Assembly (NCBI GenBank): GCA_963707915.1
Contig: OY970178.1
Span: 1,408,001-1,472,000, forward strand
Direction: 5' to 3'
From: Candidatus Eiseniibacteriota bacterium
Lineage (GTDB): Bacteria; Eisenbacteria; RBG-16-71-46
DNA: 64,000 nucleotides
Shown here: positions 1-53,600 of the stretch, one piece after another
How positions within the stretch are numbered: position 1 is the stretch's first letter
Layout of the letters: each line of letters opens with the position of its first letter
Made by a program: the position numbers and the translations under genes
Notes under the pieces: generated by a model
Database searches by the model: none
Seen by the model: only the letters and a program-made list of their open reading frames with translations
Told to the model about the DNA's origin: nothing

Positions 1-2109
1 GAGTAGGGCGCCTGTCCCGGCATCACGTAGGCCGCCATCACGAGCTCGCGCCCGCGATACTTCAGGGTGACGAGGTCGTCCGCCTGGATGCCCAGGGCAG
101 CCGCGGTGGCAGGGCCCGAGCAGGATGGCGTTGTCCCAGGTGAGCTTGCTCAGGGGTCGGGGCGTCTCCTGCAGCCAGCCATTGTTGGCGAAGCGTCCGT
201 CGTAGGCGCTCGCGTCGGGGCAGAAGACGATCTCCAGGTCGTCCTTCCCCGGCGCGGGGACCGGGGGCGCGGGCTCCGAGAGCGCGCCGGCCAGCCGGTC
301 GAGGGCGAGCGGAGGGTTCTCGCGGGCCAAGGCCGTTCCGGCAAGGATCCCGTCCTGGACCGCCGTCCGCCAGAAGGCCTCGAAGCCCGCGGAGCCGGCC
401 AGGGGCTCGAGCGTCCGCCGGACGATGTCGTACCCGCTCTGCAGGGAGTCCCCGGTGATCGCCGCGAGCAGCTCGATCGGGGTCTTGCCCTCGTAGAGCG
501 GATCGATGAGCGGCTGTACGACGCTGACCGTGCCGTCCCAGGAGCGCGCGTCGCCCCAGGACTCGAGGTAGTGGGCGCGCGGGATGTGCCAGGATTCGCC
601 GCTTCCAGCCAAGACGCGCTGCGCCGTCTCGTCCTGGTAGAGCCCGAGGTGGATCCCGTGCGGGACGCGTCCGAGGGCTTCGCCGAAGCCGAGGTCGACC
701 GGTGCGTCGTAGACCGGATTGCTTCCCAGCAGGAGGAGGGTGTCCACCCTGCCCGCGCGCATCTCCTCGACCAGTGAGCGGAGGGATTCCAGCTGGGAAG
801 GCGGCGCCGGACGGCCCGGGTCGTCGCCGGGCGCCCCTCCCTCCCCTTCCATGGTGAACTGCACGGTCTGCCCCGCGTTGCCCAGGACCTGGTTGACCAG
901 GTGGGCGATGGCGTGGACCTCCGCCGGCTGCCGCGGCCCCACCACGACCACGCCCCGTCCGGCGTGCCGGACCAGGTCCCGCGCCAGGTCCCGAATGAAG
1001 GGCGGCCCCGCGCCCGTTCCCGATCCTCGGAGGCCCGCCAGGACCGGAGCGATCCCCACCGGGAGATGCGTCCCGAGGGAATCGAGCACTTCTGCGGCCA
1101 ACTGCCTTGCCAGGATCGGCACCTGGGAACTGGGAACGGCACGTCGGTGGTCCGCGTTGGCCCCGGTGATCGAGTAGGCGCTCTCGAGCACGTAGAGTCG
1201 GTTCATCCGGCCGGCTTCGGCCCGGCGCCCCCGGGCGAACTCCCTCGCATGCCGCACCGCCGCCGGATGCTCGTACAGGAAGTCGGAATCGAGGGCGACG
1301 ATCAGGTCCGCCCGCTCGAGATCGAGCTGGACGCGATAGGGCCGTCCGAAGGCAATGCGGGCCCCGGCCCGCTCCCGGTCGCGCGAGACCGGCTCCCACT
1401 CGCACCACCGGGCGCGGGGGAAGAGCCGCAGGAACCGCGCGCGCATCTCCGCGAGGCTGAGGGAGGAAGATTCCTCGCCCAGGACCGCGAGCCCCTCCCC
1501 GTCCCGGGCCCGCAGCGCGGAGAAGTGGGCTCCGGAGAAGGCGGTGAAGTCGTCCCAGGTCGCGGGGAACCGTTCGTCCCCCTGGCGGCGCATCGGCGTC
1601 TGGCTGCGATCGGGATCGTAGAGACCGAGCACGCTCGCCTGGGCGCGGGCATCCGCCGCGCCGCCGCTGATCGGGTGGATCGAGTTCCCTTCCACCTTGA
1701 TCGGCCGCCCGTCGTAGCTGGTGACCAGGAGCCCGTGGGCGACGCCCCCGAGCTCCATGGCGGTCGCGTACTGCTGCGGAACGCCGGGGATCCGGTTCTC
1801 CGGTCGGTGAGCGAAGGGAAGGATGTTCTGGCGGGGCCAGCGGCACCCGGCCAGCCCGGCCAGGCACAGCGACGCTCCCATGAGCTGCAGGAATCCCCTC
1901 CGGGAGTGGAGGTTCTCGGGCTCTTCGGCCTGGGGCGGGAATTCGCGTTGAAATCGCGCGCGGAATCCGGGCGACCCGGCCAGCTCGTTCAGGCTCCGCC
2001 AGTAGGCGCGGCCGACGAGGGCGGGTCCGTCCAGCGCGCCCCTCGCCGGGGCGGCTTCCGCCGGGCGGCTTCCCGTCTCCCCTTCCCGGTCGTCGTTCAG
2101 CGGTGACAT
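1..2109 (-). CDS. actB: Alternative complex III subunit B (Tat-variant molybdopterin oxidoreductase-like / Fe-S fusion), 5' part; runs off the left edge; +1 frameshift near nt 112-117
   Basis: Manual translation from ATG at 2109 gives YWRSLNEL...SRRGFLQLMGASLCLAGLAGC (Tat plus lipobox-like), DGRPIKVEGN, HYLESWGDA and DGRFANNGWLQETPRPLSKLTWDNA. After LGP the homologous sequence (ATAAALGIQADDLVTL...MPGQA) continues in another frame. Lies directly downstream of actA. Confidence 0.9.
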   Translation of the reverse strand, partial: MSPLNDDREGETGSRPAEAAPARGALDGPALVGRAYWRSLNELAGSPGFRARFQREFPPQAEEPENLHSRRGFLQLMGASLCLAGLAGCRWPRQNILPFAHRPENRIPGVPQQYATAMELGGVAHGLLVTSYDGRPIKVEGNSIHPISGGAADARAQASVLGLYDPDRSQTPMRRQGDERFPATWDDFTAFSGAHFSALRARDGEGLAVLGEESSSLSLAEMRARFLRLFPRARWCEWEPVSRDRERAGARIAFGRPYRVQLDLERADLIVALDSDFLYEHPAAVRHAREFARGRRAEAGRMNRLYVLESAYSITGANADHRRAVPSSQVPILARQLAAEVLDSLGTHLPVGIAPVLAGLRGSGTGAGPPFIRDLARDLVRHAGRGVVVVGPRQPAEVHAIAHLVNQVLGNAGQTVQFTMEGEGGAPGDDPGRPAPPSQLESLRSLVEEMRAGRVDTLLLLGSNPVYDAPVDLGFGEALGRVPHGIHLGLYQDETAQRVLAGSGESWHIPRAHYLESWGDARSWDGTVSVVQPLIDPLYEGKTPIELLAAITGDSLQSGYDIVRRTLEPLAGSAGFEAFWRTAVQDGILAGTALARENPPLALDRLAGALSEPAPPVPAPGKDDLEIVFCPDASAYDGRFANNGWLQETPRPLSKLTWDNAILLGPCHRGCPGHPGGRPRHPEVSRARARDGGLRDAGTGALL

Positions 2110-2747
2110 GTGTAGCAATCCGTCGATGGGTTGATGTCATTGAGCCGGCGCAAGCGCCGGCCCTCGGTGAGCTGATCCCCGCCCGGGCGGTAGTCCATCT
2201 GGGTCACGGCCTCGACCGGCCGGAGGTGCTTCTCCGGGCGGCGGTGGCAGTCCAGGCACCATCCCATGGTCAGGGGCTGGGCTTGATAGACCACCTCCAT
2301 CTTGTCCACCCGGCCGTGGCAGGAGACGCATCCCACGCCCCGCGTGACGTGCACGCTGTGGTTGAAGTAGGCGAAATCGGGGAGGTCGTGGACCTTGACC
2401 CACGGGATCGGCAGGCCCGAGGCGAAGCTCTCCCGGACCGGGAGCAGCTTGGGGCTCTGCGCCCGGATCTGGTAGTGGCAGTTCATGCAGGTCTGGGTCG
2501 GCGGGACGGCGGCGTATCCGGCCTTCTCCACCGTGTTGTGGCAGTAGCGGCAGTCGATCCCCAGGTCCCCTGCGTGCAGGGCGTGGCTGTAGGCCACGGG
2601 CTGCGAGGGCTGATAGCCGACGTTCGTCGTCCGGCCCGAGAGCCCGTAGACGGCCAGGACGACGACATAGAGCAGGCCCCCACCCAGCAGCACCGTGGCG
2701 AGGGGACGGATTGAATTGGTCCACTTGGGGAACAGGTAGCTCGGCAT
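2097..2747 (-). CDS. actA: Alternative complex III pentaheme cytochrome c subunit A
   Basis: N-terminal TM helix; GYQPSQPVAYSHALHAG; five CxxCH (CRYCH, CMNCH, CVSCH, CLDCH, CYTCH); LPDFAYFNHSVH; LTMGWCLDCH. Confidence 0.92.
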   Translation of the reverse strand: MPSYLFPKWTNSIRPLATVLLGGGLLYVVVLAVYGLSGRTTNVGYQPSQPVAYSHALHAGDLGIDCRYCHNTVEKAGYAAVPPTQTCMNCHYQIRAQSPKLLPVRESFASGLPIPWVKVHDLPDFAYFNHSVHVTRGVGCVSCHGRVDKMEVVYQAQPLTMGWCLDCHRRPEKHLRPVEAVTQMDYRPGGDQLTEGRRLRRLNDINPSTDCYTCHR

Positions 2748-14143: not shown

Positions 14144-16025
14144 ATCGGGTAGGCGGGGTCGTTACCGGCCCCGCCTCCCACACCACCGTACGTGCCGTTC
14201 GGCATACGGCGGTTCAAGCTGAGCGCGCAAGGCGCCGGTGTTCCTCGACGAAGCTCACGAGACCAAGTTGACGCAGGGTCAGGACCGGAACGGCGGCGTT
14301 CATGTGGCTGGCCCCGGCATTCCACCACGGGCCCCGGCCATTACCAGCACCGAGGCGTGCGTGTTCCGCGGTCAGACCACGGCGGCGAAGTTCGTCGAAC
14401 CGGGTGCGGCCCCGCTTCCACTGCCGCCACAGCACGGCACGCAGTTTCCGCCGCAGCCACTGGTCCAGTTCTTCGAACACGTTGCCGACCTGGCTCAGCC
14501 GGTAGTACGCCGTCCAGCCCCGGATGATGGGGACGAGCGTCGCGATGGTGTCCTTGAGGCGGCGGCCCCGGGCGGCCCGGAACGTGGCTCGTAGCTTGTC
14601 CTTCAGTCGTTGAACCGACCTCCGGGCGACCTTGAGCTTCGCTTCGCGGTCCACCGTGAACGAGTAGCCGAGGAACGTGCGGTCCCACGGCCTCGCCACC
14701 GCGCTCTTGTCCCGGTTCACCTTCAGCCGGAGCCGCTTCGTGAGGAAGCCCTCCAGCGACGCCATTACCCGCTCGCCCGCCGCCTGCGACCGCACGTACA
14801 CGTTGCAGTCGTCGGCATAGCGCACGAAGCGGTGTCCCCGTCGCTCCAGTTCCTTGTCCAGCTCATCGAGCAGGATGTTGGACAGCAGCGGTGACAGCGG
14901 CCCGCCCTGTGGCGTGCCCTCCGTCCGGGGTGACGCGACTCCACCCTCCAGCATCCCGGCCCGCAGATAGCAGCCGATCAGCCGGAGCACCCGCTTGTCC
15001 TTCACCCGCCTCGCCACGAGTCGCATCAGCACGTCGTGGTTCACCGTGTCGAAGAACTTCGCCAGGTCCAGGTCCACCACCCACCGGTAGCCCGCCGCGA
15101 TGTGTTCGCGGGCACGCACGACCGCGTCGTGCGCCCCGCGTCCCGGCCGGAAGCCGAAGCTCGCGTCCGAGAACGTCGGGTCGAAGATGGGGGTAAGCAC
15201 CTGATGCAGCGCCTGTTGGATCATCCGGTCCAGCACCGTCGGGATGCCGAGCATGCGCACGCCGCCGCCGGGCTTCGGGATCTCCACCCGTCGCACCGAT
15301 TGCGGGCGATACGTACCGCCCAGCAGCTCCTGCCGGATGCGCGGCCAGTGCTCGCGGCAGTATGCCCCAAGCGCTTCGACGGTCATCCCGTCCACGCCCG
15401 GCGCACCGCCGTTCGACACCACCCGCGCGTGCGCCACCGCCAGGTTCTCGCGGCGCAGCACTTCGTCGATGAGACTCCGAGCCTCGTCCCCGGCTGCTCC
15501 GCTGCGTGCCGCGTGTGCTTGACGCTCCGGTTCCGGTACCTCGGCGGTTCCGCCGCCTGCCTCCCGGACCGGCTCGGGCTTCCCAGCCCTCGTTCCTGCG
15601 TCTCCTTCACGTCGCGAACCCATCGGTCCGGTTCGGCTCCTCTGGTTCGGCCCTTCGCGGGTGTGCGCCCCGCTACTATGGCCTCGGCTGACTCCTCGCT
15701 CCGTTCGGGGCCGACTGCTCAGCCGAACGTCACCCTTTCGGGCGTGAGGCGAGGTCTCCCCGGGTATGACGCGTGACTTTCGCTCCATCCACCCGTCGCA
15801 TCTACGCCGGCACGTTCCGGATGACTTCGGGCTTCGAGTCTCTTTGCCCTCTCGCCCACCTGCCGTCGCCTCGTATGCGCTTCGTGTTCCTCGGGCCGGA
15901 GCTTTGCCTCGGGCTTCCTTCCCACCCCGCCTCGCGGCGACGCAGTTGCCTCCGGCTAACGGTTCCCGTCATCAGGGTCCGTAGAGGACTTCCACCTCCA
16001 AGTCATCGCGCCCTGCCGGGCGCAC
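14144..16025 (-). mobile_element. Group II intron, bacterial class C (IIC), about 1.88 kb
   Basis: 5' end GTGCGCCCGGCAGGGCGC at 16025; domain V/VI GAACCGCCGTATGCCGAACGGCACGTACGGTGGTGTGGGAGG...CCTACCCGAT ends at 14144; CGC catalytic triad in a short DV; inserted right after a rho-independent terminator, which is the IIC hallmark. Confidence 0.95.
14214..15623 (-). CDS. ltrA: Group II intron reverse transcriptase/maturase (no endonuclease domain)
   Basis: GAPGVDG, RMLGIPTVLDR, FGFRPGR, DLAKFFD, GTPQGGPLSPLLSNI, RYADD, maturase X domain GWTAYY; start codon uncertain. Confidence 0.95.
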   Translation of the reverse strand: MGSRREGDAGTRAGKPEPVREAGGGTAEVPEPERQAHAARSGAAGDEARSLIDEVLRRENLAVAHARVVSNGGAPGVDGMTVEALGAYCREHWPRIRQELLGGTYRPQSVRRVEIPKPGGGVRMLGIPTVLDRMIQQALHQVLTPIFDPTFSDASFGFRPGRGAHDAVVRAREHIAAGYRWVVDLDLAKFFDTVNHDVLMRLVARRVKDKRVLRLIGCYLRAGMLEGGVASPRTEGTPQGGPLSPLLSNILLDELDKELERRGHRFVRYADDCNVYVRSQAAGERVMASLEGFLTKRLRLKVNRDKSAVARPWDRTFLGYSFTVDREAKLKVARRSVQRLKDKLRATFRAARGRRLKDTIATLVPIIRGWTAYYRLSQVGNVFEELDQWLRRKLRAVLWRQWKRGRTRFDELRRRGLTAEHARLGAGNGRGPWWNAGASHMNAAVPVLTLRQLGLVSFVEEHRRLARSA

Positions 16026-45521: not shown

Positions 45522-46787
45522 TCAGCGCCGGGCGGCCTCGCCCGTGCGTCCGGCACCGACGCCGCCGGCCAGCGCGTCGGAGGCACCGCCGGTCGGGGCC
45601 CGGCTGCCCGCGGCCGGCCGCGTGCCCGGGCCTCCCGCCAGCGCGGTCGGGGCTTCGGCGGCGACGTCGTGGCACTGGTCGCAGCCGACCGCGGTCACGC
45701 CCCGCCCCGCGGGCCAGACCAGCCCGAAGGCCTCGTTCGAGCCGTGCGCCTTGTGGCAGGTCAGGCAGAAGACCCCGTTACGGGCGGCATCGACCACGCG
45801 CCCGCCGGCATAGTCCGTCGCCCCGCGCACCACCACGCGGGCGCGCGTGGTGCCCTCGAAGCCCGAGCCGTGCCCGCGCGCCCAGTGCGCCGCGGCCGTG
45901 GTCTCGCGCCGGTCGCCCTGCGCGATGGAGTTGGTCGCCCCGTCCTGGCTGTCGTACGAGGGGTGCCGCTCGTGCCGGCCGTCCCCGTCCGGGTCCTGGG
46001 CCTGGGCGCCGCTGAGGCGATCGTGGCAGTCCACGCAGAGCCTCGACGCCTCGCGCAGGTCGTCGGTGTCGAGCGTGCCGTACGAGACGCGCGCCGCCTC
46101 GTAGCGCCGCATGCCGATCGCGGCCGGGTCCACGAACAGGCCGAGCGGCGGCGTGGCGCTGGGGTCGCCCGCCAGCCTCAGGTTGCGCGCGACGGAGTTG
46201 CCGTGCGGATCGTGGCAGTCGATGCAGGTGAGCAGCCCGCTGCCCGCGCCGGTCCCGCGCACGCCGTGTCCCAGGGCGTGGCCCTTGCGGCTGCGCACGT
46301 CGCTGGGCCCGAAGAATCCCGCCGAACGGTCCGCGAGGCCGTTGGCGTCGTCGCCGACGACGTCGGGGACGCCGGCCTGGTTGTCGTGGCAGGAAAGGCA
46401 CAGATCGAGCGGGTCGGCCTGGCGCAGCATGTACGGGTTCGGGGGCGGCTCGGACGCGCCGAACCCCGCCACCTCGGCGTCGGCCACCCGGCGCGGGGCG
46501 CTGCGCGAGGCGCTCCCGAACAGGTGACAGTCGGCACAGTCGACCTGGCCCCGCACATGGTGCCGCGGCTCGGCGTCCCCGAAACGGAGGCCCGTCGTCG
46601 CGGGCCCCGGGGACACGCCGCGCGGATCGCCGCCGCTGCGACCGTCACCCGAGCGCGCCGCCCCCGGCAGGAGCGCCACGATGCCGAGCAGCACGGCGGC
46701 GACCGCCGCACGGCGGCGGGACCCCGGCCGCGCGCTGGGTGGACGAAGCGAGGAGGCGGGGGGCAGCGATCCCGGGAGGCACTTCAT
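45522..46787 (-). CDS. Exported hexaheme cytochrome c, OmcS-like motif architecture
   Basis: Signal peptide; six CxxCH (CADCH, CLSCH, CIDCH, CVDCH, CLTCH, CDQCH); AGGAGG RBS before ATG at 46787. Confidence 0.85.
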   Translation of the reverse strand: MKCLPGSLPPASSLRPPSARPGSRRRAAVAAVLLGIVALLPGAARSGDGRSGGDPRGVSPGPATTGLRFGDAEPRHHVRGQVDCADCHLFGSASRSAPRRVADAEVAGFGASEPPPNPYMLRQADPLDLCLSCHDNQAGVPDVVGDDANGLADRSAGFFGPSDVRSRKGHALGHGVRGTGAGSGLLTCIDCHDPHGNSVARNLRLAGDPSATPPLGLFVDPAAIGMRRYEAARVSYGTLDTDDLREASRLCVDCHDRLSGAQAQDPDGDGRHERHPSYDSQDGATNSIAQGDRRETTAAAHWARGHGSGFEGTTRARVVVRGATDYAGGRVVDAARNGVFCLTCHKAHGSNEAFGLVWPAGRGVTAVGCDQCHDVAAEAPTALAGGPGTRPAAGSRAPTGGASDALAGGVGAGRTGEAARR

Positions 46788-49212: not shown

Positions 49213-49440
49213 TTACCGCTCTTCGTCGATCCCGTCGACTTCGTCGAGGTCGTCCTCGTCGTCGTCGTCGTACTCCTCTTCGTCGAACTCGTCGTCGAAC
49301 TCGTCGTCGTCCTCGTCTTCGTCGAGATCCTCTTCTTCGAGATCGTCGTCGAAGAGCTTGTCGTCCTCGTCGTACTTGTCGACTTCGTCGTCCGGGATCG
49401 GACCGAAGTCGTCGTCGGGAATGCCCTTCTTCTTGGTCAT
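49213..49440 (-). CDS. Small, extremely acidic hypothetical protein (75 aa)
   Basis: GAGGGAG RBS, ATG and GAC/GAG-rich codons; 46 of 75 residues are D/E by hand count. Confidence 0.7.
   Translation of the reverse strand: MTKKKGIPDDDFGPIPDDEVDKYDEDDKLFDDDLEEEDLDEDEDDDEFDDEFDEEEYDDDDEDDLDEVDGIDEER

Positions 49441-52371: not shown

Positions 52372-53600
<1,229 letters not shown>

Follow-up and report, generated by a model that had tools for sequence, protein, structure and literature searches.

A His16-less OmcS-fold cytochrome from Eisenbacteria, apparently reduced from a seven-heme subfamily: a candidate accessory electron carrier

The cytochrome gene and its genomic setting

The window, that is, the whole 64,000-nucleotide stretch of Candidatus Eiseniibacteriota DNA analysed here, contains at 45522-46787 on the (-) strand a gene for an OmcS-fold hexaheme c-type cytochrome of 421 aa (P0001), as judged from the reading frame (421 codons plus stop), a family profile, and a structural model. 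All other P0001 features located below are likewise on the (-) strand. The GC3 of the gene is 0.94, with values of 0.95-0.98 in the neighbouring genes, and its start codon is plausible because orthologues start at the equivalent Met. Following an Arg-rich start, the N-terminus shows a single hydrophobic segment, picked up in windows that begin at residues 26-34, helical at residues 27-37 in the AlphaFold2 model and with no Cys after it. This helix suggests Sec export, residues 27-41 (46665-46709) being the likely signal peptide core according to the model and the hydrophobicity. A promoter and terminator scan around the gene gave 0 sites, and a search of sequencing runs with P0001 listed no RNA run and four DNA rows with small shares.

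The six CxxCH motifs (C84, C130, C188, C251, C341, and C369 in a motif scan) are the same six, in the same order, as those described in the first-pass annotation, and are held in three H...CxxCH..H...CxxCH repeats, with the third-position His absent from repeat 1 only. Heme 1 would be attached at CADCH (C84-H88; 46524-46538) and heme 2 at CLSCH (C130-H134; 46386-46400). The motif of heme 3, CIDCH (C188-H192), is followed by H195, the putative distal ligand of heme 1 (46203-46226 with the motif), and that of heme 5, CLTCH (C341-H345), by H348, the putative distal ligand of heme 3 (45744-45767). Heme 4 has CVDCH (C251-H255) and then D256 (46020-46037 with the motif), a position occupied by a second His in the seven-heme relatives (CxxCHH), and heme 6 has CDQCH (C369-H373; 45669-45683). 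The other probable distal ligands are H77 for heme 2 (46557-46559; equivalent to OmcS His2, with His in 113 of 120 aligned homologues and gaps in 6), H170 of RKGH for heme 4 (46278-46280), and H275 of RHP for heme 6 (45963-45965), the latter two being His in 120/120 homologues. Thus, P0001 has five OmcS-equivalent distal His residues, namely H77, H170, H195, H275, and H348. In this three-repeat layout, the distal ligand of an odd heme would be the His that follows the odd heme one repeat later, and covariation of position 187 with 350 fits a location of H348 near heme 3. Just before H275 lies a DPDGDG loop (265-270; 45978-45995), a DxDxDG-type motif that we take to be a candidate calcium site; this loop occurs in 112 of 157 subfamily rows vs 1 of 69 outgroup rows.

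The P0001 gene follows genes for an RlmI-type methyltransferase and an arginase-family protein and converges on DUF1844 and MazG genes; it is an orphan among housekeeping genes and is not part of an osc-type cluster, in which barrel and lipoprotein genes would accompany it. In congeners, rlmI adjoins the DUF1844 gene with nothing between them in all six examined (of seven). The only paralogue in the host genome (G000; C1:3117747-3118820; 27% identity) keeps the linking motif as CSDCHVMH. It belongs to a region (C1:3,102,491-3,121,589; L001-L002) in which a His16-bearing OmcS-like hexaheme heads a multiheme cluster. The cluster further encodes cytochromes with 9, 42, 10, and 6 hemes, an LpoB-like lipoprotein, and an NHL propeller, has two large genes that lack annotation, and is adjoined by a cytochrome c assembly gene; barrel genes are probably among its members. 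A search for paralogues retaining CxxCHxxH, proposed at first reading, has therefore found one in a putative porin-cytochrome cluster of the same genome, at a distance of 1.66 Mb from the P0001 gene. Two further large multiheme clusters of G000 (C1:2,604,900-2,621,900 and 2,647,400-2,655,300) encode 13-, 19-, 9-, 8-, 18-, and 9-heme, and 20- and 23-heme proteins, respectively, some of these genes being located, by eye, beside Rieske/cytochrome b and NrfD look-alikes.

The presence of ACIII in the window had also been read in the first-pass annotation as a hint of extracellular electron transfer. The ACIII genes, namely a five-heme gene at 2097-2747 and a 1063-residue Fe-S gene that runs off the left end of the window, are followed by SCO, COX2, COX3, and COX4 and lie ~43 kb from the P0001 gene. 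Such an order of ACIII and oxidase genes is the arrangement of ACIII-oxidase respiration. ACIII was therefore rejected as evidence for extracellular electron transfer, that evidence being instead the putative osc-like cluster elsewhere in the genome. The ACIII cluster and the cytochrome c oxidase genes after it (window 1-2747; G000 C1:1,394,900-1,410,750, L165) show actC, actD, and oxidase subunits apparently split over frames, probably by assembly indels. Other features of the window, all on the (-) strand, are an IS3-like transposase pair at 52372-53600 and a group II intron reverse-transcriptase-like frame at 14214-15461, both recognised by eye, and a short, extremely acidic Asp/Glu-rich frame at 49213-49440, upstream of the arginase-family gene.

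OmcS relationship and descent within a seven-heme subfamily

As a single sequence searched with phmmer against the PDB, P0001 gave nine weak matches, OmcS not among them; in Pfam and NCBIfam it has paired-CXXCH and generic multiheme matches only, and an atlas search returned only paired-CXXCH clusters (best 0.93), none with a named function. A profile of 120 homologues of P0001 finds OmcS (6EF8) in the PDB with an E-value of 8.3e-9, one built from 60 hexaheme paralogues covers OmcS residues 1-346 (E 9.6e-28), and a comparison of both profiles gives a full-length match (E 6e-59). Furthermore, the AlphaFold2 model of P0001 (mean pLDDT 77; 212 residues at 90 or above) was compared with 48,161 chains by VIA-align, and its best match is 6EF8 (Z 13.3, rmsd 3.7, 245 aligned residues, 24% identity), with the alignment spanning model residues 75-376 and chain residues 1-407; the runner-up, MtrA, reaches a Z of 5.8. 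Foldseek with the same model against the PDB gave nothing at an E-value of 0.001 or better, OmcS not being among the four rows returned. The membership of the OmcS family proposed at first reading is thus borne out, and the best structural match is to OmcS and not to another multiheme fold. By homology and by the fold of its predicted structure, P0001 is an OmcS relative.

The loss of the OmcS His16 position, also claimed in the first-pass annotation, is seen directly in the alignment. Residue 16 in the printed sequence of 6EF8 is His, three residues after the first CxxCH, and is aligned with Gly91 of P0001 (46515-46517), the first heme motif of which reads CADCHLFG; the column has His in 91 of 120 homologues. 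His16 was reportedly identified by Wang et al. in 2019 as the OmcS residue that ligates the heme of the neighbour. The neighbour's ligand of heme505 is accordingly taken here to be His16, and hence to correspond to the Gly91 column of P0001, an assignment that fits the three-repeat layout. In the description of OmcS in PMC6584659, 11 of the 12 axial His residues come from the subunit's own chain, and heme505 takes one from a neighbour. The loss of His16 does not, by itself, forbid a filament because OmcZ is described as polymerising without an inter-subunit His (PMC9473688).

Canonical hexahemes have exactly six conserved distal His residues, and His16 is kept in 68 of 69 of them, L022 being the exception. 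The 60/60 seen in the hexaheme alignment overstates this conservation, as the alignment comprises 60 of 65 rows, with a duplicate of the host paralogue, two near-duplicates, an unrelated c7-like row, and the His16-less L022 dropped; the count of 68/69 is free of that row choice. Among lower-ranking 50% representatives, 97 of 104 have His16, the other seven being fragments without heme 1. The exceptional gene (L022:9069-10220, (-) strand) encodes a canonical-type hexaheme with a 21-residue tail and a long branch, and is convergent on a seven-heme gene. In the subfamily of P0001, His16 is absent from 30 of 173 rows, with at least nine changes on the tree. The loss is not a one-off design because it recurs in the subfamily, and sequencing error is ruled out by P0003-P0011, which come from other assemblies and also lack the His.

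Most close homologues of P0001 carry a seventh heme motif. Of the 120 aligned, 102 have an extra CxxCH between H170 and heme 3 (loop 171-186 of P0001, 46230-46277, from which the motif has been lost), 101 have CxxCHH at heme 4, and 92 have a His in the N-terminal extension. The first two features go together: among 112 rows with heme 1, both are found in 94, the extra motif only in 1, the second His only in 0, and neither in 17, and on the tree they change jointly on 6.3 of 7 independent pairs (p 0.03). The second His of CxxCHH is a heme ligand in cytochrome c3, and in these proteins it likely ligates a side heme located beside heme 4. P0001 is without the seventh CxxCH and the CxxCHH but falls inside the seven-heme clade, nesting among seven-heme rows with a clade support of 99 (FastTree, with canonical hexahemes as the outgroup; the 173-row subfamily tree was built after removal of the His16 loop, the seventh-heme loop, and the CHH column). 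The six hemes of P0001 are therefore a return to six and not the OmcS state. Thus, as read from the sequences, P0001 is a secondarily reduced member of the seven-heme subfamily that has lost His16, the seventh heme, and the second His of CxxCHH. The first-pass OmcS reading stands with respect to family and fold, and had not anticipated the descent from a seven-heme form or the recurrent loss of His16.

The seventh heme changes 8 times among the 173 subfamily rows, and its loss and that of His16 are unlinked on independent pairs (p 0.5-0.6). Two orthologues at the same site dissociate them, L103 having lost His16 and kept seven hemes, and L108 having kept His16 while its seventh motif decayed. 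A role of His16 as the ligand of the seventh heme was accordingly rejected.

Subfamily records come from Eisenbacteria, Zixibacteria, Planctomycetota, Armatimonadota, Ignavibacteria, Krumholzibacteriota, Gemmatimonadota, Glassbacteria, Fibrobacteraceae, Spirochaetota, Thermoanaerobaculia, Poribacteria, and Nitrospinota. Among 59 subfamily loci, 24 include a hexaheme paralogue, at most 1.5 kb away in 21; of the 29 loci with 5 kb on both sides, 10 are without another multiheme gene. A canonical His16-bearing hexaheme gene with a seven-heme paralogue directly after it, inside multiheme clusters, was observed in L013, L026, L027, L029, L033-L035, L040, L043, L049, L054, L056, L061, and L064, these being candidate pairs of subunit and end-piece. 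L042:7905-10314 is a tandem of two seven-heme OmcS paralogues, and L075:5418-7736 is a 14-heme frame in which an OmcS-like hexaheme appears to be joined to the usual following multiheme gene, possibly by fusion or read-through.

Heme 5, the interface regions, and possible functions

Heme 5 of P0001 is presumably the site that a neighbour completes in OmcS, a mapping based on the reported role of His16. The first-pass annotation had counted five distal His residues for six hemes and had named spare His residues as possible sixth ligands; the five are present, the count ignores H301 of AHW (45885-45887), and the remaining spare residues, H272 apart, are not conserved. H76, H174, H306, M120, and M226 were rejected as ligands of heme 5 on this ground, H76 being found in 24 of 120 homologues (mostly Tyr or Phe at that position), H174 in 19 of 120, and H306 below the 8% cut-off. 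H272, within the DxDxDG loop, is found in 99 of 120 homologues and is lost in P0008-P0015. H301 is an extra, near-invariant His (118 of 120 homologues; 28 of 30 His16-less rows), and might either supply the sixth ligand of heme 5 or cap a helix. A structural role would fit the replacement of H301 by Asn in eight His16-bearing rows and by Phe or Tyr in two His16-less rows, and also the HW pair seen in 13 canonical-type, His16-bearing hexahemes, the relatives of which vary at that place. Covariation with an 11-class alphabet, in alignments of 248 rows (Meff 177) and 414 rows (Meff 342) and of a kind that cannot place an invariant His, puts the H301 helix at the heme 5-6 end (303-334, rank 4-5; 298-374/375, rank 38-43). 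We judge the chance that heme 5 is open or solvent-bound to be slightly short of even; ligation by H301 of the same chain, a possibility raised by conservation of that residue, is somewhat less probable, and completion by the His of a partner is rather unlikely.

The gene is under purifying, somewhat relaxed selection. The dN/dS values against L102, L103, and L108 (Nei-Gojobori, GC-rich DNA) are 0.33, 0.46, and 0.36 for the whole gene and 0.26, 0.43, and 0.29 for the core, with 0.15-0.35 in neighbouring genes, and identity to same-site orthologues is 55-61% vs 72-88% for the neighbouring genes. A reading of P0001 as a pseudogene was rejected on the dN/dS values. Divergence is greatest outside the heme core. 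The loop after heme 1 (89-116; 46440-46523), tentatively assigned to the donor face, has an identity of 0.24 across the 15 His16-less rows compared, with 0.23 in the N-terminal extension, 0.33 in loop 171-186, and 0.46 in loop 256-274; the same four regions show identities of 0.38, 0.31, 0.50, and 0.65, respectively, in 31 His16-bearing sister rows, in a comparison of clades that differ in depth. Core-block identity is 0.64-0.76 in the His16-less rows vs 0.60-0.72 in the sister rows, the best-kept His16-less blocks being 341-375 (0.76) and 275-340 (0.69), and the median root-to-tip length is 2.55 in His16-less rows vs 2.37. A Gly/Ala/Pro-rich tail of 48 residues after heme 6 (45525-45668) is predicted by the model to be disordered. 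The median length of the tail after heme 6 is 4 residues in canonical hexahemes (n=68), 6 in the His16-bearing subfamily (n=143), and 22.5 in His16-less rows (n=30), figures in which some proteins may be cut by contig ends; tail length and His16 loss are not significantly associated on independent pairs (p 0.5). The Pro/Gly/Ala-rich tails reported at both ends in the first-pass annotation are real and fall in low-confidence parts of the model, where pLDDT is below 50 for residues 1-23, 46-50, 92-96, and 383-421.

A count over 61 genomes, which are related and in many cases incomplete, found the canonical paralogue in 15 and a subfamily copy in 7, all 7 among the 15. The 46 genomes without the canonical paralogue gave 0 subfamily matches, two of them having weaker, unclassified OmcS-like matches. 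Among the seven are the two other His16-less cases, L084 and L085. This co-occurrence may reflect only a shared origin in one gene cluster. A subfamily copy was not found in 8 of the 15 genomes with the canonical paralogue, including a congener with an rlmI that is 96% identical, and P0001 is therefore taken to be dispensable for wire building. The roles as a cap, a nucleator, or part of a heteropolymer suggested in the first-pass annotation may apply, but a function essential to assembly is made less probable by the isolated location of the gene and its scattered distribution.

The explanation of P0001 to which we give an even chance is that of an exported, non-polymerising accessory electron carrier that works beside the canonical OmcS-like system and is derived from a seven-heme paralogue. 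It is favoured because the protein has no linking His to donate, has a decayed interface loop, and is optional with the canonical system. P0001 would be exported by Sec and loaded with six hemes, five of them bis-His-ligated as in OmcS; without His16, it would not clamp onto a preceding subunit, and interfaces no longer in use would be marked by the tail of 48 residues and by the decay of the loop that follows heme 1. Electrons would then pass between partners in the periplasm or at the surface through the uninterrupted chain of six hemes, with P0001 monomeric or transiently bound. This explanation is tempered by the dN/dS of P0001, which is above the 0.15-0.35 of its neighbours.

P0001 could instead be a decaying orphan paralogue, under relaxed selection, losing its features stepwise, heading to gene loss, and playing a minor carrier role at most. 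The unlinked and repeated changes of His16 and the seventh heme, the empty site in 6/6 congeners examined, divergence faster than that of neighbouring genes, and the gain and loss described for Geobacter omcS-like genes (PMC12977616) all agree with decay. However, dN/dS is well below 1, the frame is intact, the full-length clade rows have all six motifs and the five distal His residues, the losses are restricted to defined modules, and the root-to-tip length is only slightly greater in His16-less rows, so that decay appears an unlikely account. A role at the chain end is given a similarly low probability: P0001 would accept His16 of the canonical paralogue at an open heme 5, and would start or tip the filament at its own heme-1 end. 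Its accepting heme 5-6 end is indeed the best kept, co-occurrence with the canonical paralogue is 7/7 (L084 and L085 included), 21/59 subfamily loci have a hexaheme paralogue no more than 1.5 kb away, and PMC13712944 asks whether there are subunits for initiation and termination. Set against these points are the orphan gene 1.66 Mb from the cluster, the failure to find a copy in 8/15 canonical-gene genomes (including the congener with the near-identical rlmI), the 48-residue tail at the very end that would accept a subunit, and an identity to the paralogue of only 27%. Least probable, and in our view quite improbable, is that P0001 still homopolymerises, through H301, H272, or H76 across the interface or, as in OmcZ, through protein contacts alone. 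The complete OmcS heme core, the conserved spare His, and the precedent of OmcZ, which needs no inter-subunit His (PMC9473688), would allow it, and a borderline covariation of 90 with 367 (rank 45, z 5.2) could mark a head-to-tail contact in the subfamily; that signal, however, is close to the noise level and is contributed for the most part by His16-bearing rows, H76 and H272 are variable as described above, the loop after heme 1 is decayed, and both ends of P0001 carry extensions. The accessory carrier thus remains the preferred reading.

Comparison with known systems

In the passages of the papers that it covered, the literature search turned up neither a seven-heme nor a His16-less subfamily of OmcS; a survey of OmcS homologues reportedly published by Shen et al. 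in 2025 may mention them. The existence of OmcS homologues outside Geobacter, and of paralogues of unknown role, is already in print (PMC10954620, PMC12977616, PMC13194489). The proteins compared here form a natural OmcS-fold series, with six hemes and His16, with seven hemes, His16, and an extra His, and without His16, the side heme, or both, and so offer ready-made tests of the role of the linking His. The series also offers a possible soluble monomer with the OmcS fold for electrochemical and structural work. P0001 stands at its reduced end and may matter little to the host. For annotation, the series is a warning that a six-heme OmcS match need not be a wire subunit.

With OmcS itself (GSU2504, Geobacter sulfurreducens, PDB 6EF8/6NEF), P0001 shares the fold, the order of the heme motifs, and the five distal His positions. 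It differs in the Gly at the His16 position, the extra H301, ~30 extra residues between the signal and the His2 equivalent and 48 after heme 6, the descent from a seven-heme form, and the orphan gene. OmcT, OscC (GSU2501), OmcJ, and the osc operon provide OmcS-like paralogues of unknown role beside a canonical subunit, as with P0001, and OmcS paralogues are likewise described as duplicated, gained, and lost (PMC12977616, PMC13194489). Compared by description, OmcT, OscC, and OmcJ are hexaheme, and P0001 lies outside a cluster and in a distinct clade. OmcZ (G. sulfurreducens, PDB 8D9M) resembles the subfamily only in how it works, with an off-axis heme such as the seven-heme relatives would carry and ligation entirely within the chain; its fold is described as unrelated (PMC9473688), it is not among the four chains reported by VIA-align, and P0001 is without the side heme.

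The question of how filaments end is raised in PMC13712944, in which no co-operonic candidate was found for OmcE, and in which a hypothetical anchor is described as the subunit fold with one extra His and a hypothetical tip as that fold with heme exposed to a greater extent. Members of the seven-heme subfamily combine an additional His with an additional heme, and their genes, often co-operonic, form tandems with canonical omcS-like genes across many uncultured phyla. Because it fits the anchor and tip descriptions on paper and is often co-operonic, it is the most interesting lead from this analysis. It is conceivable, although we consider it unlikely, that seven-heme OmcS paralogues are end pieces of OmcS-type nanowires: His16 would dock the paralogue on the last subunit, H301 would halt growth by closing heme 5 of the same chain, and an exposed exit would be provided by the seventh heme. 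P0001 would then serve at the opposite end, as an initiator or a tip, or would be a shuttle that has been released and is fully closed. The anchor and tip of PMC13712944, however, were proposed for OmcE, and P0001 is without the docking His, with H301 as a candidate ligand.
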